64,000 nucleotides of DNA, from the NCBI GenBank assembly GCA_028868375.1, contig JAGWUP010000009.1, forward strand, positions 32,538-96,537, given 5' to 3'. The translations under genes were made by a program, and so were the position numbers. This document shows positions 8,951 through 64,000 of this stretch, in pieces (position 1 is the stretch's first letter; each line of letters begins with the position of its first letter). Below the pieces are notes generated by a model, which ran no database searches, was not told where the DNA came from, and was given only the letters and a program-made list of their open reading frames with translations. This stretch comes from Elusimicrobiota bacterium (GTDB taxonomy: Bacteria; Elusimicrobiota; Elusimicrobia; UBA1565; UBA9628).

Positions 8951-9292
8951 CTAGCGCCGGCGGCGGCTATCCCAGCGCCGCGCCATCTCGTCGAAGCGCT
9001 TCTGCTGCTCGGGTGTCAGCATCGCTCGGATGTCGGAGCGCGTCTGGGCGCGGATGGCCTTGAACTTGGCCGCCGTCTCCTCGCGCAAGGAGCGCAGCCG
9101 CCCCGCGCTGGCCTCCAGGGCGGCCTGCACGGAGAGACGCTGGGGGTCGCTTAAACCCAGCTCCCGCGAGAAGCGCTGCGCCAAGCGCGCGGGATCCGGC
9201 GCGTGGCGGCGGTGGCGCAGCCGCGGCAGGGCCAGCATGGCCGCCGCACCCAGCAAGAATCCGAGCAGGACCGGCAGGATCGATTTTCTCAT
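8951..9292 (-). CDS. periplasmic Spy/CpxP-family LTXXQ-motif protein
   Basis: Internal Met with a GGAGGGGG RBS, a signal peptide (MRKSILPVLLGFLLGAAAMLA) and an LTPEQQKRF motif. Overlaps the anti-sigma stop (ATGA). Confidence 0.6.
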   Translation of the reverse strand: MRKSILPVLLGFLLGAAAMLALPRLRHRRHAPDPARLAQRFSRELGLSDPQRLSVQAALEASAGRLRSLREETAAKFKAIRAQTRSDIRAMLTPEQQKRFDEMARRWDSRRRR

Positions 9293-9759
9293 CTGGCCGC
9301 CCCCTCCATCAGCGATAAAGCGTCCGTGCGGGATGGAGGCGGACCGGAGAGCCAAGCGAAAAAGCCGGCGCCGTCCGGCTCTGTTAAGAGAAGCGCCACG
9401 GCCGGATCGCGCGGCGACGAGGCGGGCGCGGCCAGCAGGAGCGCTGCGGCCAGCCCCAGGCCGAAAGCGGGAGCCAGCCAGCGCGGCGCAAGCCAAGACC
9501 AGGCGGGCCTTGACTCCGCCTTGGCCTTTACGGCCGCCATCACGCGGCGCGCAAAGGCCGCCGTCTCCGCCTCGTTCGCCGGCGCCTGCGCCCTAAAAAG
9601 CCGGGAAGAAGCCTCCCTCCAAGCCGCCAACTCCTGCCGGCACTCGCCGCAAGCCGCCAGATGGCTCTCGAAGGAACTGCGCCTCTCTAGCGGCAGCTCG
9701 CCGTCGTAGAACTCCCAGAGCGCCTCTTGCGCTTCCTCGTGTTCCATTCCCCCCTCCAT
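9289..9759 (-). CDS. anti-sigma factor, zinc-finger (ZAS, HxxxCxxC) type with C-terminal TM segment
   Basis: HLAACGECRQEL motif, a C-terminal hydrophobic stretch, and a position 4 nt downstream of the ECF sigma gene. Confidence 0.65.
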   Translation of the reverse strand: MEGGMEHEEAQEALWEFYDGELPLERRSSFESHLAACGECRQELAAWREASSRLFRAQAPANEAETAAFARRVMAAVKAKAESRPAWSWLAPRWLAPAFGLGLAAALLLAAPASSPRDPAVALLLTEPDGAGFFAWLSGPPPSRTDALSLMEGAAR

Positions 9760-9762
9760 CGA

Positions 9763-10362
9763 TTAGACGTCCTCCGGGGCGACTAAGTGCCGCAGCCGCT
9801 CCAGCAGATCTCGCCGCGCCCTCTGGAGGCGGGCCTTGACGGAATCCAGGGAGCAGTCCATCGTCTCGGCGATCTCCTCATAGCTGAGCCCGTTGAGCTC
9901 GCGCAGGGTCAGGATCAGCCGATAGGCCCGCGGCAGGCCGCCCAAGGCCGCCTCGAGGAGCTGCCTGTCCGCCAGAGCCGGCTCCGGGCCGGGAGCGGCC
10001 GGCAGGCGCAAGGCCGCTCCGGGGTCCTCCAGGGCCGCGTCGAGAGAGCGCGCCCCGGAACGCCCCATGCGCCTGCGCCAGTCGAGGCATTTGTTGGCGG
10101 CGATGCGGTAAAGCCAGCTAGAGAAGGCGCAGTCGCCGCGAAAATCTCCCAGGGCGGAGTAGGCCTTGAGAAAGGCCTCCTGCGCCGCGTCCTCGGCAGC
10201 CTCGGGCAGCAGCGAGCGGCACAGGGCGATGATCCGCGGGTGGTGGCGCCTGATCAGCTCGGCATAGGCGCCGTCGTCTCCCGCCTTGACCCGAGCGACG
10301 AGTTCCAAATCGGTGATGAGAGGGATATTACTATATGCCGATGATGGACGCCCGCCGCTCAA
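9763..10362 (-). CDS. ECF-type RNA polymerase sigma factor (sigma-70 family)
   Basis: Region 2 (AQEAFLKAYSALGDF, WLYRIAANKCLDWRRR) and region 4 (LSYEEIAETMDCSLDSVKARLQRAR). Start is uncertain (a TTG at 10362 or downstream). Confidence 0.85.
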   Translation of the reverse strand: MSGGRPSSAYSNIPLITDLELVARVKAGDDGAYAELIRRHHPRIIALCRSLLPEAAEDAAQEAFLKAYSALGDFRGDCAFSSWLYRIAANKCLDWRRRMGRSGARSLDAALEDPGAALRLPAAPGPEPALADRQLLEAALGGLPRAYRLILTLRELNGLSYEEIAETMDCSLDSVKARLQRARRDLLERLRHLVAPEDV

Positions 10363-24456: not shown

Positions 24457-24472
24457 AGCAACATTTTTGCCA
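24457..24472 (-). promoter_or_regulatory. sigma-54 (-24/-12) promoter TGGCAaaaatgTTGCT upstream of the cyc2-like gene
   Basis: Consensus spacing, located about 40 nt upstream of the ATG and directly downstream of the NtrC-family regulator gene. GATTCC...GGAATTTC repeats lie 40-75 bp further upstream (24509-24534). Confidence 0.6.
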
Positions 24473-24552: not shown

Positions 24553-25926
24553 TCAGCGGTAGAGCCGCGGCTGGAGGCCGTATTTCTTAAGGTACCAATA
24601 CAAGTTGCTCAGCGGCAGGGCCGCGGCCTGGGCCGCCGCCTTGGCGTTGCCGTGGTGTTCCTTAAGGAGAGCGTCGAAGTATTCCCGCTCGAAGGCCTGG
24701 ATGCCCTGCCTCTTTCGCTCCACGAACCCCCCCCGCGCCTCGAGCGGCTCCGTCGGAGCCGAGACGAGGTTCTCGGGAAGGTCCTCGGGCCGCAGGAGGC
24801 TGCGGCCGCACAGCAGGATGGAGCGCTTGAGGACGTTCTGCAGCTCGCGGATGTTTCCGGGCCAGGAGTAGCTCGTCAAAATCTCCAGCGCCGCGGGGTC
24901 GACGCGCAAAACGTTCGAGTCCAGCTCCTTGGAGTAGCGCGGCAGGAAATGCTCCAGCAGCAGCCGTATGTCGTCCGGGCGCTCGCGCAGCGGAGGCACG
25001 CGGATGGCGACCACGTTCAAGCGATAGAAGAGATCGGAGCGGAAGCGCCCCGCCGCGACGTCCGCCTTCAAGTCGCGATTGGTGGCGGCGACGACGCGCA
25101 CGTCGACGCTTTGGACCTCGTTGCCTCCGACCCGGCGAAATTGCCGCTCCTGGAGCGCGCGCAGGAGCTTGGCCTGCAGCCCTCCCGGCAATTCCCCCAC
25201 CTCGTCCATGAAGAAAGTGCCGTGGTCGGCGAACTCCAGGAGCCCCGGAGCGGCCTCTCCCGCGTCGGTGTAGGCCCCGCGCTCGTGGCCGAAGAACTCG
25301 TTTTCAAGCAGGTTCTCCGGGATCGCGCCGCAGTCCACCGGCACGAAGCGCCCACGCCTGCCGGAGCGCGCGTGCAGGCGCCGCGCGATGAGCTCCTTGC
25401 CGGTTCCCGACTCGCCCAGGATCAGCACGTCCGCCGCCGTCGCCGCCACCTTGTCGACCAGCGCCAAGACCTCCAGAATGCTGGGGCTGGCGCCCACGAT
25501 GCCGTCGGTAGCGTATTCCCGGGTGAGGTGCCTGGTGAGCAGGCGATGCTCCCCCTTGAGCCGCCTCTGCTCCAAGGCGCGCGCCACCTTCAGGCGCAGG
25601 TCGTCGGGGTGGAAGGGCTTGATCAAGTAGTCCAGCGCCCCGTCGCGCAGCGCCTGCACGGCGGATTCGACGCCCGGGAAAGCCGTGATCAGGATGAAGG
25701 GAAGCTCGGCGTCCGTCTTCTTGGCGGCGCGCAAAAGCTCCAGGCCGCTTAAACCCGGCATGTTGATGTCGGCCACCACCGCGTCGAACGTTCCCCGGGT
25801 CAAGCGCTCCAGGGCGCGCGGCGCATCCGCCTCCAGCACGACGTTGACGGCCTCCCGCGAGAGCGCGGCCTTGCAGGTCGAGAGCATGTCCCTCTCGTCG
25901 TCGACGACGAGGACGCTCTGGGTCAC
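24553..25926 (-). CDS. sigma-54-dependent response regulator (NtrC/AtoC family: REC + AAA+ + Fis HTH)
   Basis: REC domain (VLVVDDERDM, phospho-Asp), AAA+ Walker A GESGTGKE, the GAFTGA-like ENEFFGHERGAYTDA sigma-54 contact loop, and a C-terminal HTH. Confidence 0.9.
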   Translation of the reverse strand: MTQSVLVVDDERDMLSTCKAALSREAVNVVLEADAPRALERLTRGTFDAVVADINMPGLSGLELLRAAKKTDAELPFILITAFPGVESAVQALRDGALDYLIKPFHPDDLRLKVARALEQRRLKGEHRLLTRHLTREYATDGIVGASPSILEVLALVDKVAATAADVLILGESGTGKELIARRLHARSGRRGRFVPVDCGAIPENLLENEFFGHERGAYTDAGEAAPGLLEFADHGTFFMDEVGELPGGLQAKLLRALQERQFRRVGGNEVQSVDVRVVAATNRDLKADVAAGRFRSDLFYRLNVVAIRVPPLRERPDDIRLLLEHFLPRYSKELDSNVLRVDPAALEILTSYSWPGNIRELQNVLKRSILLCGRSLLRPEDLPENLVSAPTEPLEARGGFVERKRQGIQAFEREYFDALLKEHHGNAKAAAQAAALPLSNLYWYLKKYGLQPRLYR

Positions 25927-27287
25927 GGCGCCGGAGCCCCCGGAGCGGGAAAGCGGATGGTGAAGCTCGCCCCCCGGCCGACGCCCCCGTCCACCAGGAT
26001 TTCCCCGCCGTGCGCCTTGACGAAGGACAGGGAGATCGGCAGGCCCAGGCCGGTCCCGTGGTCGGCCGTCTTGGTCGAGAAAAGGGGCTCGAAGATCTTG
26101 CGCAGATGCTCCGGCGCGATGCCTTCCCCGGTGTCCGAGATCACCGTCTCGATCCAGCCGCCCGCCTCGCGCGTGGCGGCGCCGAGCCGGCCCCCGCGAG
26201 GCATGGCCTCGATCGCGTTATGGATCACGTTCAGGTAGGCATGAAAGAGGTCGTCGTAGCTGGCCCGCACCGGCGCGACGGCGCGCAAATCGCGGCGGAC
26301 CTCTATGCCGCGGGCGCGCGCCTGCGCCGCGCTCGTGGCCAAGGCGTCGCAGAGCACCTCGTTGACGTCCACCTCGCCGCGCGGCTCGGAGGAAGGCTTG
26401 AGCAGGCGCAGCAGGCGCTGCACGACCCGGCCCACGCGATCGCTCTGGCGGTCGACGATCTCCAGGGACTCCTCAAGGAACTCCCCGGAGCGAAACTCCG
26501 GGGAGCCGGAGCGCAGCAGCTTCATGCGCGCGGAGATGATCCCGATGGGGTTATTGACCTCGTGCGCGATGAAGCCGACGATCTGCCCCAAAGCGCCCAG
26601 CCGCTCGGCCTTGAGCAGCCGCTCCTGGCTGTCGCGCAGCCTGCCCATGATCGTCGTGATGAAGTAGGCCGTGCCGGCCAATAGCCCCAGGAAGGTCGCC
26701 GTCATGCCCACGACCTCCCTCAGCCGCTCCGGGCTGGCGAACGCCAGCAGGCGGTAGTGAGGCCAGAGGCCGGCGTACTCGCCGAAGCTCAGGCAGCAGA
26801 AGAGGCCCCCCGCCATGGCGGTCACCAGCCAGGCGTCGGAGACCGACAGGAGAATCCCCGCCATCAAAACGTGGAAGACGTAGAGAACGTACAGGGGGTT
26901 CTCCAGCCCTCCTGAAAAATGGAGCAGAAAGGTCAGCAAGACCAGGTCGAAGGCCATCTGCGCCAGCAGGAATGGGCGCTGCCGGCGCAGCCTGGAGCGC
27001 AGGGACAGGAAAGCGAAATTCCCGAGCAGGATGGCCGCCACGCATGTCCAGAGCGGCGCGGCCAAGGAGGGATCGACCCAGCCCAGGACGTGGGCGGCTA
27101 AAAAGACCGTCACGCCGGCCGCGGTCGCCGCCACGCCGCGCATGCGGATAAGCCAATCGGCCGGGCCGCGGCCGCTGCCGGCCGCCTCGGCGCCGATGAT
27201 CAGGGGAAGCTCCGGCGCCAGCCGCCGTCCCATCACCGCCGCGCCGACGGCCACCAGGCAGAGCAGGACGCCTAGGCCTTCGAGCAT
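25923..27287 (-). CDS. membrane sensor histidine kinase
   Basis: About 6 N-terminal TM helices, H-box FIAHEVNNPIG, and an HATPase_c with N, G1 (DTGEGI) and G2 (GTGLGL) boxes. Overlaps the regulator gene start. Confidence 0.85.
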   Translation of the reverse strand: MLEGLGVLLCLVAVGAAVMGRRLAPELPLIIGAEAAGSGRGPADWLIRMRGVAATAAGVTVFLAAHVLGWVDPSLAAPLWTCVAAILLGNFAFLSLRSRLRRQRPFLLAQMAFDLVLLTFLLHFSGGLENPLYVLYVFHVLMAGILLSVSDAWLVTAMAGGLFCCLSFGEYAGLWPHYRLLAFASPERLREVVGMTATFLGLLAGTAYFITTIMGRLRDSQERLLKAERLGALGQIVGFIAHEVNNPIGIISARMKLLRSGSPEFRSGEFLEESLEIVDRQSDRVGRVVQRLLRLLKPSSEPRGEVDVNEVLCDALATSAAQARARGIEVRRDLRAVAPVRASYDDLFHAYLNVIHNAIEAMPRGGRLGAATREAGGWIETVISDTGEGIAPEHLRKIFEPLFSTKTADHGTGLGLPISLSFVKAHGGEILVDGGVGRGASFTIRFPAPGAPAP

Positions 27288-47328: not shown

Positions 47329-47344
47329 ATGCAACAAAATAGCC
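47329..47344 (-). promoter_or_regulatory. sigma-54 (-24/-12) promoter TGGCTattttgTTGCA upstream of yceI-porin operon
   Basis: Perfect GG-N10-GC spacing in an AT-rich intergenic region, about 28 nt upstream of the yceI ATG. Confidence 0.55.
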
Positions 47345-47380
47345 AAAACAATAAGACGACTTACTTTCGCTAGCCTTGAA

Positions 47381-51020: not shown

Positions 51021-51069
51021 GTTCGGATTGTTCTTCGATTAAGCAACCAAGCAACGCTACGGCCAAATC

Positions 51070-55624: not shown

Positions 55625-56667
55625 AGGCAGCCCGGATCGGAGGCCAGGTAATCGCCCGTCATCGCGTGGGCGCGGGCGCGGGAGCCGGAGCAGACGACGC
55701 GGAACTCGCAGGCGCCGCATTTGCCCTTGAGCCGAGAGGGATCGCGCAGGGCCAAGAAAAGATCGGAGTCGCGGTAGACCTTCGCGATGGAGTCCGTGCG
55801 CACGTTGCCGGCCGCCAGCGGCAAGAAGCCGGAGGGGCAGATGTCGCCGCGGTAATCCACGAAAGCGAAGCCCTTGCCGGCGTTGACGGCCACCTTGGTG
55901 GCCGTCGCCCCTCCTCTAATGCCGGGGCCCTTGGCCGCGCCGGCCGCAAGCCCGCCATGCTGAGCCAAGTACCTGCGGTAATGCTGCCCCTCGGTCAGCT
56001 TGACGACGAAGCCGGCCCCCGCTTCAAGCTGGCGCAAGCGCTCGAAGGCGTCCTCGAACTCTTGGGGCGAGAGCCCGCCCAGCTCCACTCCGCGTCCGAC
56101 CGGAATCAGGAAGAAGACCTCCCAGAACACCACGCCCAGGCGGCAGACCAGCTCGATCATCGCCTCGAGGGCGTGGGCGTTGGAGCGAGAGAAGCAGGTG
56201 TTGATCTGCAGGGGCAGCCCCAGCTCACGCGCCCAGCCCGCCGCCTCCAGGGTGCGCTCGAAGGCTCCCGGCACCCCGCGCAGGCTGTCGTGCAGCGCCG
56301 CGTCCGGGCCGTCGAGGCTCAGGGCCAGCTGATCGAGGCCCAGATCGCGCAGGCCCTCCAGCCGGCGGCGCGTCAAATTCGGCGTGGCCGCCGGGATCGT
56401 GCCCATGCGCAGGCCTCGCTCCTTGCCGCGCGCCACCAAAACCTCCAGGTCGGGGCGATTGAAGGGGTCTCCACCGGAGAGGATCATGATCGGGGTGCCC
56501 ATCCCGGCCACCGCGTCGATGAGCCCGCGGCCCTCCTCGCTCGTCAACTCCTGCGGCGAGCGCCCCAGCTCGGCTGAGGCGCGGCAATGTCGGCAGGCCA
56601 GGGCGCAGGAGCGAGTCGTCTCCCAGATGACCAAGAGCGGCGCGACGCCGAAATCAGGCGCCTTCAT
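55606..56667 (-). CDS. radical SAM/SPASM-domain protein (NirJ/AhbC/AhbD/PqqE-like)
   Basis: N-terminal LLVIWETTRSCALACRHC (CxxxCxxC) and a C-terminal SPASM Cys cluster (CPSGF, CGACEFRVVCSGSRARAH). Confidence 0.75.
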   Translation of the reverse strand: MKAPDFGVAPLLVIWETTRSCALACRHCRASAELGRSPQELTSEEGRGLIDAVAGMGTPIMILSGGDPFNRPDLEVLVARGKERGLRMGTIPAATPNLTRRRLEGLRDLGLDQLALSLDGPDAALHDSLRGVPGAFERTLEAAGWARELGLPLQINTCFSRSNAHALEAMIELVCRLGVVFWEVFFLIPVGRGVELGGLSPQEFEDAFERLRQLEAGAGFVVKLTEGQHYRRYLAQHGGLAAGAAKGPGIRGGATATKVAVNAGKGFAFVDYRGDICPSGFLPLAAGNVRTDSIAKVYRDSDLFLALRDPSRLKGKCGACEFRVVCSGSRARAHAMTGDYLASDPGCLYEPAR

Positions 56668-57046
56668 GGCCCAGATTCGCCACGAGCGACCGGAGGATGT
56701 CCATCGCCGAGACGATGCCGACCAGCCGCCCCCCGCGCGTGACCAGCAGGCGGTGGATGCGGCGCTCGAGCATCACGCGCGCCACCTCCTCCGTGGGCGT
56801 GTCCTCCTCGCAGCAAACCGGCTTGTTGGTCATCACCGAGGCCACCGAGGCGCCGGCGGCCGGGCCGCCCTGCCCCTGGAAACGCGTCAGGTCGGTCTGG
56901 GAGACCACGCCCAACAGCCTCCCTTCCGCGTCGACGACCGGAGCGCCGCTGATGCGGCTCTCGCTCAGCAGCCGCGCCGCCTCCGAGATATCGGCATCGG
57001 GCGGCAGCGTGATCAGCTCGCGGCTCATGATGTCCTTGGCGTTCAT
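56654..57046 (-). CDS. CBS domain pair protein
   Basis: MNAKDIMSRELITL start and two CBS repeats (ARLLSESRISGAPVVD, ARVMLERRIHRLLVT). Confidence 0.7.
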   Translation of the reverse strand: MNAKDIMSRELITLPPDADISEAARLLSESRISGAPVVDAEGRLLGVVSQTDLTRFQGQGGPAAGASVASVMTNKPVCCEEDTPTEEVARVMLERRIHRLLVTRGGRLVGIVSAMDILRSLVANLGHEGA

Positions 57047-57110
57047 GAAGGATTCGCCCTTATCTTGCAACAGGTCTGCCATCGGCCGGGTTGTTGCTGC
57101 GGTTTTCATC

Positions 57111-57917
57111 ATGATGATCCACGTTCCCCCTCGACGGCTGCTGGTCGCCTATGATTTTTCGCGGCGCGCCGCCTTGGCCTGGCGCGCCGCCCTGGCCTTG
57201 GGGCGGCTGTGGGGCTGCGGGGTGGAGGCCCTGCACGTCGTCGATCCGATGGAATCTCCCGGACGCGCCCCGCTGACTCTCGCGCCATCGAGGCGCGGCC
57301 TGCTGCGCCGCCGCCTGGAACAAGCCATCCCGGGCGCTTCCTCCTATTTCATCGCCCTGGGCGACCCTGCCTTCTGCATCCTCGAGCACGCCCGCTGGCG
57401 CCGCCCGGACTTGATCGTGCTGCCCTACGAGGGCAGGCGCGGCGTCGCTCGGCTGCTGAAAGCCTCGGTCGCCGAGATCGTCGCCGGGCAGGCCTGCGCC
57501 CCGGTCCTTGTCTTGAAAGGCTGCCCCCGACGAGTGCGCTCGGTCCTCTTTCCGATCCTCGCCGCGGACGCCGAGCATTCCGCGCTGCGCCAGGCGGCGG
57601 GGATCGCGGCGGCCCTATCGGCCCACATGACGGTGATGCGCGTGCGGCGCGCGCCTTGGCCGCGGCCAAGGGCGCTCTCGAAGCTGGAAAGCGTCCTGGA
57701 GACGCTGGACCCGGCCGTCCGAGCCGTCGTCAAGCCGGACATGCGACTGGCCGCCGGCAGCCCGGCGCGGCGCCTTGCCGAGGAGTCCGGGCGCCATGAC
57801 CTGCTCGTGCTGCCCCTGGCGCCTGGCCGCGCCGGCTCTCAAGCGCTGCGGCTCTCCGAAGCGCGCCGTCTCATGCGCCTCTCTCGGGCCGCGGTGCTTA
57901 CCTTGCCTTCTGAGTGA
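57111..57917 (+). CDS. universal stress protein (tandem UspA-like)
   Basis: Internal ATG start MMIHVPPRRLLVAYDFS and two USP-like halves (VLPYEGRRGVARLLKASVAEIV). Confidence 0.55.
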   Translation: MMIHVPPRRLLVAYDFSRRAALAWRAALALGRLWGCGVEALHVVDPMESPGRAPLTLAPSRRGLLRRRLEQAIPGASSYFIALGDPAFCILEHARWRRPDLIVLPYEGRRGVARLLKASVAEIVAGQACAPVLVLKGCPRRVRSVLFPILAADAEHSALRQAAGIAAALSAHMTVMRVRRAPWPRPRALSKLESVLETLDPAVRAVVKPDMRLAAGSPARRLAEESGRHDLLVLPLAPGRAGSQALRLSEARRLMRLSRAAVLTLPSE

Positions 57918-59244
57918 CCGCCACGCCGTAGGATTTAAGCTTGCGCCAGAGGGTGTTGCGCCCGACTCCGAGCCGCCGGGCCGCCTCGGTGGCGTTGCCG
58001 CCGCAGGCCTCAAAGACGGCGAGAATATGCTTGCGCTCCAGCTCCTCCAAGGTCTCGGCCGCGACGCCGCTCGGCCCCTGCAGCTCCGCCGGCAAATCCG
58101 GCAAGGACACCGCGGGACCGGAGGCCATGATCAGGGCCCGCTCGATGGCGTGCTCCAGCTCCCGGACGTTCCCCGGCCAAGAGTAGGCCGCAAGCGCCGA
58201 GGCCGCCTCCGGGGCCAGCCGCACGGCCGAGCCCCCCGTCTTCTTCTTGGCCTTGCGCAAGAAATGCTCGGCCAGCGGCAGGATGTCCTCCCGGCGCTGG
58301 CGCAGCGGCGGAATCTCGATGGGAAAGACCTTCAGCCGGTAGTAGAGATCTTCCCGGAATTTCCCCTCTTTGACGCGCTGGGCCAGGTCCTTGTTGGTGG
58401 CCGCGACCAGGCGGCCGGACACCTTGATGGGGTGGTTGTCGCCGACGCGCCGCACCTCCCCCTCCTGCAGCGCGCGCAGGAGCTTGACCTGCAGGGCCAA
58501 GCTCGTCTCGCTGATCTCGTCGAGAAACAGGGTCCCGCCGCTGGCCTCCTCGAAGAGCCCGCGCTTGTTGCGGTCCGCGCCCGTAAACGAGCCCTTGACG
58601 TGCCCGAAGAGCTCGCTCTCGAGCAGCCCCTCCGGCAGCGCGCCGCAGTTGATCGCCACGAAGGAGCCGCTGCGCCGGGGGCTGTTCTCGTGAATGGCGC
58701 GGGCGACGAGCTCCTTTCCGGTGCCGGACTCCCCGCAGACCAGCACCGTCGCCTCGGTGACGGCGACTTTCTTGACTAACTCCAGCACCCGGTGCATCTG
58801 GGGCGAGCCGTAGACGATGCCCTCGAAGCTGTACTTGCCCTTCACCTCCTCGCGCAGCCGGCGCACCTCTCCCAGCAGGCTTCTGCGCTCCAAAGCCTTG
58901 TGCAGCACCAGCGCCAACTGCTCGGTCTCGATCGGCTTGGTCAGGAAATCGAAGGCCCCCGCCTTCATCGCGGCCACGGCCGAGGAAATCGAGCCGTGCC
59001 CGGTGACCACGACGACCTCGGCGTCCGGCTGCTCGCGCTTGGAGGCGCGCAGCACCTCGAGGCCATCGCTGTCTGCCAAGCGCAGATCGGTCAGCACCAG
59101 CTCGTAGTTGTCTCGCGCCAGATGCGCGAGCGCCTCGGATGCCGATTTCGCTGCGGTCACCGCGTAGCCTCGCCCCTTGAGCTCGAAGGAGAGCAGGGTC
59201 TGCTGCGAGGGATCATCCTCCACCAGCAATATCTTGAGCGCCAT
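57898..59244 (-). CDS. sigma-54-dependent response regulator (NtrC family)
   Basis: [17 protein letters not shown]+ [14 protein letters not shown]-like [15 protein letters not shown] and a C-terminal Fis-type HTH. TGATG overlap with the kinase gene. Confidence 0.9.
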
Positions 59245-60695
59245 CAGTCCCCCGAGAAGCCGAGCTGGACCTGGAAACGGGTGCGCCCCGGCCGAGTCTC
59301 CACGAAGATCGCCCCGCCGTGAGCCTTGACGATGCGCTCCGCGATCGCCAGCCCCAGGCCGGTGCCCTGCTGCTTGGTCGTCTGGAAGGGCTTGAACATC
59401 GAGGCGCGCATCGCCTCCGGAATGCCGGGGCCGGTGTCCTCGACCTCGAAGAAGGCGCGCCCGCCGCTGCGCCCCGTGCGCACGCTGAGCTTCCCCCCGC
59501 CGGCCAAGGCCTGCAGGGCGTTGATCATCAGATTCCAGACCACCTGCCGGAGCTGGTCGGCGTCCATCGGGAAGGGCTTGAGCTCCTTCGACAGGGAGAG
59601 GACGATCTGCGTGGAGGCCTTGAGCTCGGCGTTGGACTCGATCATGCGCGCCGTCTCCTCGATCAAGCCGTTGAGATCGGAGCGCGCCAGCTTCAGCTCC
59701 CGCGGCCGGGCGAAGGAGAGGAAGTTGGTGAGCGCCTCGTTGAGCCGTTGGCTTTCGTGGCGCAGCACGCGCATGACGACGTCCCTGTCCTCCGCGTTGA
59801 GCTCGGAGCCGGAGGCCAGCTCCTTGGCCGCCATCACGATGGAGCTTAAGGGATTGCGTATCTCGTGGGCGACGACGGCGGCCATCTCGCCCAGGGAGGC
59901 CAGGGCCTCCGAGTCGGCCACGCGCGCCTGCAGCGCCAAGTGCTCGGTCATGTCGACCGCGTTCGAGATGTAGCCCACGATCTCTCCGGCCCCGTCGCGC
60001 ACGGCGGTGATGGTCAAGACCAGCGGTATCTCGCGCCCGTCCTTGGCCTTGTTGATCATCTCGCCGCGCCAGTGGCCCTTGGTGAGGATCGCTTCCCACA
60101 TCCTCTTATAGAGCTCGTCGCTGGAGTGGCGCGAGCGCAGGATGCGGGGAGTGCGGCCGACCGCCTCCTCCCGCGACCAGCCGTAATGGCGGCTGAAGGC
60201 CTCGTTGACGTCGAGGATCGTCCCGTTGCGGTCGCAGTAGAACATCACCTCGTTGGAGCGGCGGAAGGCCTCGTAAAGGGTCAGGGCCAGCCGGCGGTCG
60301 CGCGCCTGCTCGCCGATGTCGCGCGCGGTCACGAGGACGGCCCGCTCCGCTCCCAGCCGCACCAGCCTGCCCTTCTGCTCGACGGCCACCGGCCGTCCGA
60401 TCTTGTCGCGCAGGGTCGCCGGAAAATCCCCGGAGCCCGCCGCCAGCACGCGGCGGATCCAGGCCTTGTCCAAGGCCGCGTCCTTGGGGTCATAATAGAA
60501 TTCCGAGATCGAGCGGCCGAGAAGCTCCCCCTTGTCGTAGCCGGTCCCGCGCAGAGCCGCCGCGTTGACGTCGAGCACCGTCCCCTCGGGATCGCGCAGC
60601 CAGACCCAATCCGGCAACAGCTCGAAGATGTCGAGCTCGTGGACCACGTTCTGGCGACGGACCATGCGTCTATTAAATATAATTTTGCGTTCCAT
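59244..60695 (-). CDS. tandem-PAS sensor histidine kinase (soluble)
   Basis: Two PAS domains, H-box VAHEIRNPL and HATPase_c (DTGPGI, GTGLGL). Confidence 0.85.
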   Translation of the reverse strand: MERKIIFNRRMVRRQNVVHELDIFELLPDWVWLRDPEGTVLDVNAAALRGTGYDKGELLGRSISEFYYDPKDAALDKAWIRRVLAAGSGDFPATLRDKIGRPVAVEQKGRLVRLGAERAVLVTARDIGEQARDRRLALTLYEAFRRSNEVMFYCDRNGTILDVNEAFSRHYGWSREEAVGRTPRILRSRHSSDELYKRMWEAILTKGHWRGEMINKAKDGREIPLVLTITAVRDGAGEIVGYISNAVDMTEHLALQARVADSEALASLGEMAAVVAHEIRNPLSSIVMAAKELASGSELNAEDRDVVMRVLRHESQRLNEALTNFLSFARPRELKLARSDLNGLIEETARMIESNAELKASTQIVLSLSKELKPFPMDADQLRQVVWNLMINALQALAGGGKLSVRTGRSGGRAFFEVEDTGPGIPEAMRASMFKPFQTTKQQGTGLGLAIAERIVKAHGGAIFVETRPGRTRFQVQLGFSGD

Positions 60696-60726
60696 TTCGG
60701 ATCAAACGGCATAGCGAAAACGATTT

Positions 60727-60742
60727 TGGCCGTTTTATTGCA
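60727..60742 (+). promoter_or_regulatory. sigma-54 (-24/-12) promoter TGGCCgttttaTTGCA upstream of the rpoN-like gene
   Basis: Perfect spacing, about 30 nt upstream of the ATG at 60773, in the AT-rich divergent intergenic region. Confidence 0.55.
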
Positions 60743-60772
60743 ATACCATCATGGAACATTCCGGCCAATGAC

Positions 60773-61861
60773 ATGAACAAACAACGTTTGGACGCGCGCT
60801 TGCGCCAGGAGCAACGATTGGCTCTCTTCGGCCGGATGCGGATGGCCGAATGGATCGAGATGCCGGAGCGGGACTTCGCCCGGGAGATCGAGCGGCTGGA
60901 GAAGGACGAGCTCTTCCGAAGGCTCTATTTCGGCTCCGGGCAGCGCGCGGGAGCCATCCGGCGGCAGCGCTGGCCGCGGGCGCGCTTCGCCGGCATCGGC
61001 GAGCTCAACGAGCGGGTGACGGCCGGGGGCGGGGAGCGGGTCAAGGTGGAGGAGCGCCTCGAGGACCAAGGCGAGATCGCCGAGACCATCCGCAGGCTGG
61101 GGCGCGAGAACTTCGAGCGCTACTTCCTCTACGCCGAGGAAGCCCTGCCGCTCTCGGAGATCGCCAAGCGCACCGGGCTGGACGAGGCCGCGATCAAGGC
61201 GATCAACGATTTCTTGGTCGAGATCGGCGCCGAGTCGGAGTTCTCCTCGCTGCCGCGCGCCTCCGGAGGGGTGGGCTGCTATTGCGTGGCGCGCCTGACC
61301 GTCGTCGACGAGGAGCCGGTCTTCGAGTTCTTCTCCCCCCACTGGGCGCGCGGCCTCTACCAGATCCGCTACGACATCATCGAGCAGATGAAGGACACCA
61401 GCGAGCTGGTCGGCGGCGACGTCAAGCGCCTGCCCAATCTCCTCAAGCGCATCGAGACGATCAACCTGCGCCAGAGCACGATGTTCCGCGTGCTGGAGAC
61501 CCTCTCCAAGGTGCAGGTCGGCTATCTGAAAACCAGGCGAGACGATCTCAAGCGCCCGATCAGCCTGCGCATGCTGGCCAAGAGGCTGGACCTGGCCCCC
61601 AGCACCGTCAGCCGCGCCCTTTCGGAGCGCTCCGTGCGCCTGCCCTGGGACAAGGAGGCTCCCTTAATCGAGCTCTTGCCCGGCCGCCGCCGGCAACTGC
61701 GGCTGATCCTCAACCGCTGGCTGTCCGAGGACGCCAGCCCCACCGACGCGGCGCTGACCTCCCGCCTGAAGCAGGAATACGGCATCGCCGTGTCCCGGCG
61801 CACCGTCAACGCCGTCCGCCATGAATTGCGCCCCGGCGGGACGAGGCGCGCTTCCCCCTGA
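60773..61861 (+). CDS. RNA polymerase sigma-54 factor-like protein, compact (362 aa)
   Basis: C-terminal DNA-binding domain with HTH (ISLRMLAKRLDLAPSTVSRA) and RpoN box (GIAVSRRTVNAVRHEL). A region upstream of it resembles INQRQQT (INLRQSTMFRV). The N-terminus has an L/Q/R-rich region-I-like segment. Shorter than typical RpoN. Confidence 0.65.
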   Translation: MNKQRLDARLRQEQRLALFGRMRMAEWIEMPERDFAREIERLEKDELFRRLYFGSGQRAGAIRRQRWPRARFAGIGELNERVTAGGGERVKVEERLEDQGEIAETIRRLGRENFERYFLYAEEALPLSEIAKRTGLDEAAIKAINDFLVEIGAESEFSSLPRASGGVGCYCVARLTVVDEEPVFEFFSPHWARGLYQIRYDIIEQMKDTSELVGGDVKRLPNLLKRIETINLRQSTMFRVLETLSKVQVGYLKTRRDDLKRPISLRMLAKRLDLAPSTVSRALSERSVRLPWDKEAPLIELLPGRRRQLRLILNRWLSEDASPTDAALTSRLKQEYGIAVSRRTVNAVRHELRPGGTRRASP

Positions 61862-61898
61862 GCGATCGCTTGGCCGTGGCGTTGCAGAGTAGACGGAC

Positions 61899-62096
61899 GT
61901 GGACTTGAACATCACCTCAGACATGACGATCCGCGACGTCATCGAGCGCTTCCCGGCCACGCGGAAGGTCTTCTTCAGGCACCGCTTGGAGGCCTGCTGC
62001 GGGGGCGCTCATTCGATCGCGGTGGCCGCCGTGGCCCGCGGCATCGACCCGGACCATCTGATCTCGGAGATTCGCCGGGCCGTCGAGGCGGCCTGA
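61899..62096 (+). CDS. DUF1858 domain protein (hybrid-cluster-protein-associated redox disulfide-like)
   Basis: 65 aa with TIRDVIERFPATRKVFFRHRLEACCGGAHSIAVAAVARGIDPDHL, typical of DUF1858/ScdA N-domain. Confidence 0.6.
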   Translation: MDLNITSDMTIRDVIERFPATRKVFFRHRLEACCGGAHSIAVAAVARGIDPDHLISEIRRAVEAA

Positions 62097-62191
62097 CGGG
62101 GAACCTGGCCACAAAAGACTTGCGCGAAACGACGGCGTATGCTATATAGATAGAAGAGTTTCGAACCTGAGACTAGAAATGTCAGGACCGA

Positions 62192-62223
62192 CCCGCCAAG
62201 AAAACGGCGGGTTTCGTGTTTTC
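62192..62223 (+). terminator. Rho-independent terminator (CCCGCC-loop-GGCGGG followed by TTTCGTGTTTT)
   Basis: GC stem plus T-tract about 100 nt downstream of the DUF1858 stop. A second GC hairpin (GGCCCGC-gta-GCGGGCC) follows. Confidence 0.5.
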
Positions 62224-62342
62224 TAGGCCCGCGTAGCGGGCCTGCCGGCGCCGTAAGGCCCGGTCCGCCTAGGTCCATCGTTCCTCCTCGCAGGGGCCGC
62301 TCGGCCCTTCCGCTCAAACGGCCTCCACGCTAAAATAATGTC

Positions 62343-63596
62343 ATGAGACTATTAGCCGTCTCGCTGGTCCTCGCTTGCCTGCCATGGACGGCTCCCGCCC
62401 GAGCGGGGATGAACGAGGCCGCTCCCGCCCCAGAGCTTTTGCTGCTCCCGTTTCCAGCCGCCGCGCCCCAGACCGTAATCCAGTTGCAAGCCTTCCTGAA
62501 AACTCAAGAGGGCCAGGGTTTGGCCTTCTTGGTTCCAGACTTGGCCGGCCTGGCCCAAGCCGATCCGAACGCCCTGATGACGCGGCAATTGGTCGGCGCC
62601 CTGTCGCAAACGCAAGCCTGGCGGCCGGGCTTCATCCGTCCGCTGTTCACTGTCCAGTTAAGCCAAGCCATGGCTAAGAGGGACCGTCGACTTCGGGAAG
62701 CAGCGGCCCGCAATCTCGAGCGCGCCTGCCGGCAAGCCAAGCCGTCCGTAACAGCCGCCCTGGAGGCATTGCGCCGACGCGTCAAGGATGAGGCCAAGAG
62801 CGACGGCTCATTGACGCCGGAGCAAGCCCGGGAAATTGCCGACCAGCTGGAGCAGGCCGGCCTCTTCGGCCAGCTGACCGGGAATCTGGCGCGAGACATC
62901 CGCGTTATGGCCATGGTCCAGCCGGCGCTGCAGACGCTGACAGGGGGCTGCGCCGAAAGCGAGGCCGCCGCGCCAAGCGAGCCGGTGCCGGCTCCGGCCG
63001 GAAAGACGGAAACAACTCGAAGCCGCCTTAGCGTGGTGGACGGTTTGAGAGCGGACCTGGATAATGCCCCCCCGCGCGAAGTCGCCCCGCTGGCGAGAGC
63101 TCTCTCCACGCTGATGGAGGTCCGCGGCAAGGTCGGGGAAGACGCCGTCAAGGCCCTGTTTTATCGCGTTTCCCTGGCCGCGAAGGCCGGCGATCAAGTG
63201 CGCGCCGTCACCTTGCTCGAGGCGGCCGTCCCCGAGGCGCCAAAGCTTGCCGAAATGGCGCGGAAAAATCCCGCTCTGCCGGGCCTGCTGCGCCATAGGC
63301 TGGCCGAGCGCCGGCATAATCTCCGCGGGGAGCAGACGGACTACGCGGCGGCGCTGGAAGCCGCCCGGCAAAGGCTGCAGGCGGCCCAAGAGCAGTTGGA
63401 TAATGACAAGGCTTCCGCCGCCGTCCTCGACTGGATCAAGCAAGAGGATGGGTCCCGGACGGAAACGACGCCTCCCCCCTCCGAGAAGGCCCCGGCCTGG
63501 CAAAGCATCCTCATCATGCTGTCCATATCGGCCCTCCTTTGGTGGGGAGCTGCGGAGCTACTGTCCTTGCTTGAGCGGCTGTTCCACCACCTCTAA
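62343..63596 (+). CDS. hypothetical exported helical protein with C-terminal TM anchor
   Basis: Signal peptide MRLLAVSLVLACLPWTAPARA, Ala/Leu/Arg/Glu-rich helical body and a C-terminal hydrophobic segment (ILIMLSISALLWWGAAELL). Confidence 0.4.
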   Translation: MRLLAVSLVLACLPWTAPARAGMNEAAPAPELLLLPFPAAAPQTVIQLQAFLKTQEGQGLAFLVPDLAGLAQADPNALMTRQLVGALSQTQAWRPGFIRPLFTVQLSQAMAKRDRRLREAAARNLERACRQAKPSVTAALEALRRRVKDEAKSDGSLTPEQAREIADQLEQAGLFGQLTGNLARDIRVMAMVQPALQTLTGGCAESEAAAPSEPVPAPAGKTETTRSRLSVVDGLRADLDNAPPREVAPLARALSTLMEVRGKVGEDAVKALFYRVSLAAKAGDQVRAVTLLEAAVPEAPKLAEMARKNPALPGLLRHRLAERRHNLRGEQTDYAAALEAARQRLQAAQEQLDNDKASAAVLDWIKQEDGSRTETTPPPSEKAPAWQSILIMLSISALLWWGAAELLSLLERLFHHL

Positions 63597-63603
63597 GAGC
63601 GGC

Positions 63604-64000
63604 TTAGTCCAGGAGGTCGGAGGGCTGGGCGAACAGGTTCTTGGCGGCGCCGGCCTGCTTGAGCAGGGGGTTGTCGGGGCGGCCGCGCTTGAGCAGCACG
63701 TGCTCGTGAACGTCCCGCTCTCCCTTCATCCCCTTATTGACGTTGATGGAGAGATCGGCGGTGATGTCGAGGGGATCGACCAACTGGATGAGCACGCGGA
63801 GCATGTCGTTGAAAGCCACGCCGGCGCCGTCACGGCCGGAGAGCAGGTCGACGAAGGCGCGGGCTTGCTTCTGCGGCGTGGGGCAGCGCCGGGCGGCGGC
63901 GATCGCGCGGACGATCGACTCGGCCTGGTAGGCGAGCAGATCGGCGCGGCCCGCGGCGTCGTCTCCGAAGCGATGCTCGCCTTCTAGAGCGGAGCGATCG
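63604..64000 (-). CDS. partial CDS (C-terminal ~130 aa; continues beyond window end), unidentified
   Basis: An open minus-strand frame with no stop up to the window edge, ending ...NLFAQPSDLLD. The family could not be identified. Confidence 0.4.
   Translation of the reverse strand, partial: DRSALEGEHRFGDDAAGRADLLAYQAESIVRAIAAARRCPTPQKQARAFVDLLSGRDGAGVAFNDMLRVLIQLVDPLDITADLSINVNKGMKGERDVHEHVLLKRGRPDNPLLKQAGAAKNLFAQPSDLLD

Follow-up and report, generated by a model that had tools for sequence, protein, structure and literature searches.

The window analysed here is a 64,000-nt stretch of the Elusimicrobiota contig JAGWUP010000009.1, and our subject is a compact sigma-54-like open reading frame (ORF) at 60773..61861 on the forward strand, which starts with ATG and, stop codon included in the coordinates, encodes 362 amino acids (aa). 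The gene is preceded by a −24/−12 element of the sigma-54 promoter type and runs divergently from genes for a PAS-domain sensor kinase and an NtrC-type enhancer-binding protein (activator). A record with identical sequence exists as the 'hypothetical protein' KGO96_08910 of an Elusimicrobia metagenome-assembled genome (MAG; GCA_028865065.1). An earlier note on this DNA had described a shortened rpoN-like gene and suspected an unusual extra paralogue dedicated to the respiratory locus. Our analysis leads us to think it reasonably probable, with doubt remaining, that the ORF encodes a functional, strongly rebuilt compact sigma-54 that is standard for its lineage and is auto-regulated within a conserved module.

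A compact sigma-54-like protein of the Elusimicrobiota

The protein is 115 aa shorter than Escherichia coli RpoN (477 aa), within the 100–150 aa estimated in the earlier note. The following parts were assigned, with helix and strand limits from an AlphaFold2 (AF2) model where given:

60785..60922 (+): region-I-like N-terminal helices, aa 5–50; AF2 helices at 2–29, 32–44 and 46–53
60938..61279 (+): middle domain replacing region II and the core-binding domain, aa 56–169
61139..61228 (+): single unit resembling a helix-turn-helix (HTH), homologous by hhalign to one core-binding subdomain of sigma-54, aa 123–152
61280..61369 (+): beta-hairpin linker before the long helix, aa 170–199; AF2 strands at 170–178, 181–186 and 195–198; aligned to E. 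coli 281–300
61412..61513 (+): extra-long helix, aa 214–247; AF2 predicted local distance difference test (pLDDT) above 90; aligned to the E. coli extra-long helix
61556..61624 (+): HTH, predicted reader of the −12 element, aa 262–284 (AF2 HTH at 265–283); Pfam DBD and HTH matches; aligned to E. coli 366–386
61784..61825 (+): RpoN box IAVSRRTVNAVRHE, predicted reader of the −24 element, aa 338–351; aligned to ARRTVAKYRE

The C-terminal half carries the sigma-54 signature. A Pfam scan of the 362-aa protein returned Sigma54_DBD (PF04552) at aa 227–292 with E 3e-12, together with generic HTH models. Sigma54_AID and Sigma54_CBD, the other two sigma-54 domains named in the earlier note, found no match. 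The AF2 model (27 homologues as input) reached a pLDDT of 82.5 and a predicted template modelling score (pTM) of 0.81, and the best 30 Foldseek matches of this model in the PDB were all sigma-54 chains. For profile work we assembled 123 diverse family members, with a separate alignment (A1) of 27 members, and compared them with eight canonical RpoN sequences, namely that of E. coli (identical to PDB 9MSE_M) and seven copies carried on plasmids in five orders. Alignment of the two profiles with hhalign gave a probability of 99.7% and E 3e-25. At default stringency, the family was collinear with canonical columns 227–475 from its column 129 to the C-terminus (224 columns), a stretch corresponding to the C-terminal ~240 residues and comprising the last core-binding subdomain, the beta-hairpin, the extra-long helix, the HTH and the RpoN box.

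The match extends to the residues expected to touch DNA. When the family profile was compared with the PDB, aa ~205–353 aligned to sigma-54 chains, with LAPSTVSRAL opposite MHESTISRV in the HTH and SRRTVNAVR opposite ARRTVAKYR in the RpoN box, which bears out the sigma-54-type HTH and RpoN box of the earlier note. PF04552 matched all 123 members (best E 3.7e-31). Among these members, R281 of the HTH is invariant and R343 and R349 are nearly so, while R342, R343, T344, V345 and N346 of the RpoN box are invariant in A1. Since the DNA-contact residues are conserved, the predicted specificity is that of the canonical −24/−12 element, GG-N10-GC, consistent with the sites found in the window (see below).

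The N-terminal half has diverged far more. Canonical region I aligned in register with the N-terminus (aa 5–50 to E. coli 6–49; hhalign P 7.8e-5), with a score of 23.0 against 8.4 ± 1.7 (maximum 14.9) for 100 column shuffles, none of which reached 23.0. The region-I-like N-terminus proposed earlier thus stands as a weak likeness above shuffled controls, but not as a Pfam AID match. Region II, which the earlier note had called missing, has no detectable counterpart in hhalign; together with the N-terminal subdomain of the core-binding domain it is replaced by ~67 family-specific, highly conserved residues. The motifs IRRQRW, ERVxVEE and GxxxFExYFL are strongly conserved in the middle domain. 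That the core-binding domain is reduced was likewise borne out, as its last subdomain (E. coli ~227–255) was the sole part aligned with confidence; in a sub-test, this core-binding segment scored 26.4 against 10.6 ± 2.1 for shuffles. A weak HTH-like Sigma70_r4 signal at aa ~100–145 (Pfam E 0.02–0.025, under the cut-offs) raised the option of a sigma-54/sigma-70 chimera, which we rejected because sigma-70 region 4 scored like shuffles in hhalign (17.6–19.3) while the sigma-54 core-binding segment scored clearly higher. On these alignments the protein is homologous to sigma-54, yet it has no match to the curated core-binding domain and scores below the equivalog cut-off.

To place the protein, a profile search was run over 1.84 billion cluster representatives. 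At E ≤ 1e-30 the family comprised 254 clusters at 50% identity, nearly all of 345–390 aa and matched end to end. Close relatives (54–79% identity) are all 350–370 aa long, and the named ones are Elusimicrobia proteins called hypothetical; in 20 sampled distant clusters, each named member came from Elusimicrobiota. Some members are labelled ArsR- or XRE-type regulators in their source records. A scan of one genome per species recovered 71 loci, labelled as Elusimicrobia or Elusimicrobiota MAGs with few exceptions (a few named only 'bacterium' and one 'Candidatus Endomicrobium trichonymphae'). Over 27 members, column identity averages 65%. The number of clusters and loci and their Elusimicrobiota names indicate that the short form is standard in the lineage and not a local oddity; it is shown to be the standard form across (free-living) Elusimicrobiota. 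The suspected extra paralogue dedicated to the respiratory locus was not supported in the form proposed: the earlier note had itself named a lineage with a standard short RpoN as evidence against its proposal, and such a lineage was found, with 254 full-length clusters of ~350–380 aa.

In the complete, long-read genome CP096137.1, the gene of this family is broken across two reading frames (locus L069, 5983–7491), probably by an indel error and not as a pseudogene. The literature searched on Elusimicrobia with sigma-54 or RpoN yielded no description of this short family and, on sigma-54 in the phylum, only the statement that Elusimicrobium minutum is without sigma-54 and its activators, as scored in 2011 (PMC3162934).

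The divergent module and the promoter of the sigma-54-like gene

We compared the surroundings of the gene across 63 full-length related loci covering all subclades. The features upstream of the gene in the window are:

57898..59244 (−): NtrC-type enhancer-binding protein with receiver, Sigma54_activat AAA+ domain carrying a GSFTGA loop, and HTH_8
59244..60665 (−): PAS-PAS-HisKA-HATPase sensor kinase, divergent, 473 aa as deposited
60689..60703 (no strand assigned): palindrome-like site GTTCCATTTCGGATC, with GTTCCA-N3-TGGAAC/TGGAGC as family consensus, ~25 nt ahead of the −24 element
60727..60742 (+): forward −24/−12 promoter TGGCCGTTTTATTGCA, GG-N10-GC spacing, ending 30 nt short of the start codon
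60753..60767 (−): inverted near-copy of the promoter (reverse complement TGGCCGGAATGTTCC, −12 = TTCC), face-to-face with the forward element

In 55 of the 63 loci, the same PAS kinase and NtrC-type activator are encoded immediately upstream of the sigma-54-like gene on the opposite strand, which extends the divergent arrangement reported in the earlier note well beyond the window. Activator orthologues are 63–77% identical to the window copy and adjoin the family gene in nearly all loci. The sigma-54-like gene, the PAS kinase and the NtrC-type activator are thus shown to form a conserved three-gene module. CBS, radical-SAM and Usp genes are often found near the module in other loci, as they are in the window. 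The kinase start is ambiguous (60663–60695): the first ATG at 60695 gives 483 aa, the deposited annotation at 60665 gives 473 aa, and the upstream ATG overlaps the palindrome-like motif.

The −24/−12 element reported about 30 nt upstream of the gene proved genuine. In 47 of the 63 loci, the 200 nt preceding the gene contain a TGG-N9-TGC element (consensus TGGCCGGAATATTGCTAC), which is kept between clades with just 50–60% protein identity. Just downstream of this forward element, the pattern G[GA]AAC-N5-[TGA]GCC occurs in 33 of the 63 loci, compared with ~0.65 expected from a background of 0.05 per kb. Read on the opposite strand, it is TGGC-N7-TTCC, a copy of the promoter in which the −12 GC has become CC. 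Both elements occur together in 26 loci; the gap between them is 13 nt in 20 of these and 11 nt in the window. Relative to the predicted transcription start, the inverted copy lies at about +2 to +16. No inverted copy was found at the other seven −24/−12 sites of the window, nor in the four second-copy loci without a kinase-activator pair. This distribution suggests that it serves either as a sigma-54-type promoter of the divergent kinase-activator operon or as a site that binds the sigma factor or its holoenzyme to limit the sigma gene. An inverted TTCC promoter copy at fixed spacing is an arrangement that we have not seen described.

The palindrome pattern was present in 24 of the 63 loci (background 0.02 per kb). 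It may be a binding site of the activator or another regulator, or part of the kinase promoter. A divergent sigma-54 promoter inside the palindrome was considered and rejected, as the spacing is not conserved. A leftward sigma-70-type promoter in the 5' leader was likewise rejected as a general feature, being present in only five of the 63 loci (L011, L013, L014, L025 and L048); in these it reads TTGCCA, 17–18 nt, TACAAT or TAAAAT on the reverse strand and points at the kinase-activator operon. No Rfam RNA family was found within 56000–64000.

Further copies and further sigma-54 sites

Two short-family copies per genome were found in the isolates clean11 (L006/L009) and SMAG_U13971 (L005/L010), and also in NC_groundwater_1301 (L028/L049). 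In clean11 and SMAG_U13971, the copy adjoining the kinase-activator pair (L009, L010) has a degenerate forward element, GGGCCCGAAGAGTGC, and the copy away from the pair (L006, L005) has a strong plain −24/−12 element and no inverted copy. Since a strong plain sigma-54 promoter is confined to the away-from-pair copy, the two short paralogues may form a hierarchy in some of these relatives. The window protein is closest to the away-from-pair copies (69–71% identity), yet its locus is of the kinase-activator type with the full architecture. A second copy from this MAG was absent among the 120 best matches, which is weak evidence for a single copy.

No canonical rpoN, hpf, lptB or ptsN was found in the 64-kb window. 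Searching for all four with tblastn over the window and the Elusimicrobia loci returned only generic ABC ATPases and the short family, and, in 864 kb of Elusimicrobia DNA, a tiny sample of those genomes, E. coli RpoN as tblastn query likewise matched only the short family.

Sigma-54-type promoters are frequent in the window. The motif TGGC-N7-TTGCW occurs eight times compared with 1.14 expected, a 7-fold enrichment reached in none of 100 shuffles, and six of the eight sites sit 25–45 nt upstream of start codons. Besides the promoter of the sigma-54-like gene, the following sites precede genes:

61871..61886 (+): −24/−12 element TGGCCGTGGCGTTGCA, directly after the stop codon of the sigma-54-like gene and upstream of a ScdA_N/DUF1858 ORF at 61899–62096
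57066..57081 (−): −24/−12 element TGGCAGACCTGTTGCA, before a CBS-radical SAM gene pair
51050–51065 (−): −24/−12 element before a hemA-like gene followed by Rieske/cytochrome b/c genes (hemA-like/bc-complex operon)
47330–47345 (−): −24/−12 element before a YceI-porin operon
24457–24472 (−): −24/−12 element before a 455-aa gene of no named function, just downstream of a second activator

The CBS-radical SAM pair also adjoins the kinase-activator-sigma module in other loci. Two proteins with a Sigma54_activat domain are encoded in the window. These two activators and the eight sites against 1.14 expected suggest an active sigma-54 regulon.

The second activator belongs to a further pair of kinase and enhancer-binding protein (24553–27287, −); it is without the HTH_8 DNA-binding domain, and GAYTDA replaces the GAFTGA loop. 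The ScdA_N/DUF1858 ORF (+) encodes 63–65 aa, a small domain of the iron-sulfur repair or redox-sensing type. YceI-porin genes follow the family gene directly in other Elusimicrobia loci (L076, L077). An ECF (extracytoplasmic function) sigma factor with an adjacent zf-HC2 anti-sigma factor (9763–10308 and 9289–9747, −) is unrelated to the sigma-54-like gene.

Interpretation and comparison with known systems

If the ORF is a rebuilt sigma-54, the altered middle domain of the protein would bind the RNA polymerase core, and the protein would direct this core to GG-N10-GC promoters. Its own transcription would need a sigma-54-type holoenzyme and the neighbouring activator, closing a signal-gated positive feedback loop. 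The inverted site would either drive the divergent kinase-activator operon or bind excess sigma factor or holoenzyme as a brake. We put forward only tentatively, as possible but short of probable, the further proposal that free-living Elusimicrobiota are without a canonical RpoN and use the short family as their sole sigma-54. This sigma-54 would have a rebuilt core-binding module, and its level would be set by a self-activating, self-limiting kinase-activator circuit with two face-to-face sites sharing one melting region. On this proposal, control of the sigma factor itself would gate the entire sigma-54 regulon, respiratory complexes included.

Several observations weigh against a functional, self-controlled sigma-54. 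The TIGR02395 score (curated rpoN equivalog) is 51.5 bits, under the cut-off of 277.35. Pfam Sigma54_AID (PF00309) and Sigma54_CBD (PF04963) were matched by none of the 123 family members, PF00309 not even at E ≤ 1. No confidently aligned family counterpart was found by hhalign for E. coli 57–226, a stretch that spans region II and the minimal core-binding fragment, which we take to be residues 120–215. The middle domain modelled in isolation (aa 54–172, pLDDT 64) had no significant Foldseek match in the PDB; its best non-significant matches were to sigma-70 region 4 (E 0.35–2), with one sigma-54 chain at rank 27, and its profile found nothing significant among PDB sequences. At the promoter, a good sigma-70-type element was not found on the forward strand before the gene, and a sigma gene fully dependent on its own product needs a basal promoter. 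Finally, the absence of a canonical copy holds for the window and the 864-kb sample, and a co-resident full-length sigma-54 elsewhere in these genomes is possible.

Such a co-resident factor is the premise of an alternative that we regard as unlikely, in which the ORF is a specialised second sigma-54 beside a canonical full-length RpoN, is transcribed by that factor together with the activator, and serves a subset of genes such as the respiratory operons. It would account for the sigma-54 promoter of the gene, which something must read first, and for the genomes with two family copies whose promoter architecture differs; rpoN paralogue hierarchies are known in Rhizobium etli and Bradyrhizobium. 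However, the short form occurs throughout the phylum and, among the recovered loci, mostly as a single copy, both copies belong to the short family where there are two, neither the window nor the 864 kb contains a canonical rpoN, and the predicted canonical GG-N10-GC specificity would lead to cross-talk rather than a separate regulon. Less likely again, in our estimate, is a sigma-54-derived DNA-binding regulator that no longer binds core and occupies −24/−12 sites and its own palindromic double site, where it would act either as a repressor or together with the adjacent activator. Core-free sigma-54 is able to bind promoter DNA, the minimal core-binding region went undetected here, the face-to-face double site with its fixed spacing resembles an operator for two protomers, and source records call some members ArsR- or XRE-type. 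A plain DNA binder would not be expected, however, to hold the region-I-like and the 67-residue replacement segments among its most conserved parts. The last core-binding subdomain is moreover kept and collinear, and this explanation leaves the activators and the many −24/−12 promoters to a canonical sigma-54 that would have gone undetected.

A decaying or mis-called rpoN remnant with a chance −24/−12 match has a negligible probability, even though the curated rpoN models fail. The mean column identity of 65% among 27 members, intact full-length matches in 254 clusters and the confident AF2 model speak against decay, and a promoter kept across clades of 50–60% protein identity, with a motif 7-fold enriched in the window, speaks against chance; on the conservation data this explanation is already refuted.

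A phylum-wide form missed by standard models would lead Pfam- or TIGRFAM-based surveys to under-count sigma-54. If the protein still binds core, it would show what in the core-binding domain can be dispensed with or replaced. The module would offer a natural case of a signal-regulated sigma factor with a compact promoter architecture open to testing.

In the usual view, sigma-54 is a three-domain protein of high conservation that is present at a near-constant level and regulated through its activators. With canonical sigma-54 (E. coli, 477 aa; Klebsiella; Aquifex aeolicus; PDB 5NWT, 5UI5 and 8F1I) the short family shares the collinear stretch from the last core-binding subdomain to the RpoN box, the DNA-contact residues, the GG-N10-GC promoters and the AAA+ activators. 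It differs in having no recognisable Pfam AID or CBD (0 of 123), in scoring far below the TIGR02395 cut-off and in the family-specific sequence found where canonical proteins have region II and the N-terminal core-binding subdomain; the canonical lptB-rpoN-hpf context contrasts with its kinase-activator module. A Paracoccus plasmid sigma-54 (WP_024845821) comes close in length at 378 aa and also has no acidic region II, but it keeps all three domains (AID 2e-8, CBD 7e-25, DBD 2.5e-29), whereas the Elusimicrobiota family keeps the DBD only. Given this complete 378-aa sigma-54, the unusual feature of the family is the divergence of its N-terminal half and not its shortness. The Paracoccus protein (L088 2812–3948, NZ_CP058691.1) is annotated 'hypothetical' and lies beside acetoin dehydrogenase genes, and a similar protein of ~382 aa occurs in the same context in another Paracoccus sequence (L089 3275–4423, NZ_CP035286.1). 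To sigma-70 region 4 there is the weak HTH-like resemblance of aa ~100–145, but hhalign places it at shuffle level; on RNA polymerase, the core-binding domain of canonical sigma-54 sits at the site that sigma-70 region 4 uses (PMC7057263).

The closest regulatory parallels are the self-activated rpoN (nifR4) of Rhodobacter capsulatus and the autoregulated or hierarchical rpoN genes of R. etli and Bradyrhizobium japonicum, where a −24/−12 element before a sigma-54 gene likewise leads to control of that gene or its paralogue. The B. japonicum copies are cited in PMC3162934. The arrangement described here differs from these systems in being phylum-wide, in having a dedicated kinase and activator directly adjacent, and in carrying the inverted TTCC copy of the promoter.

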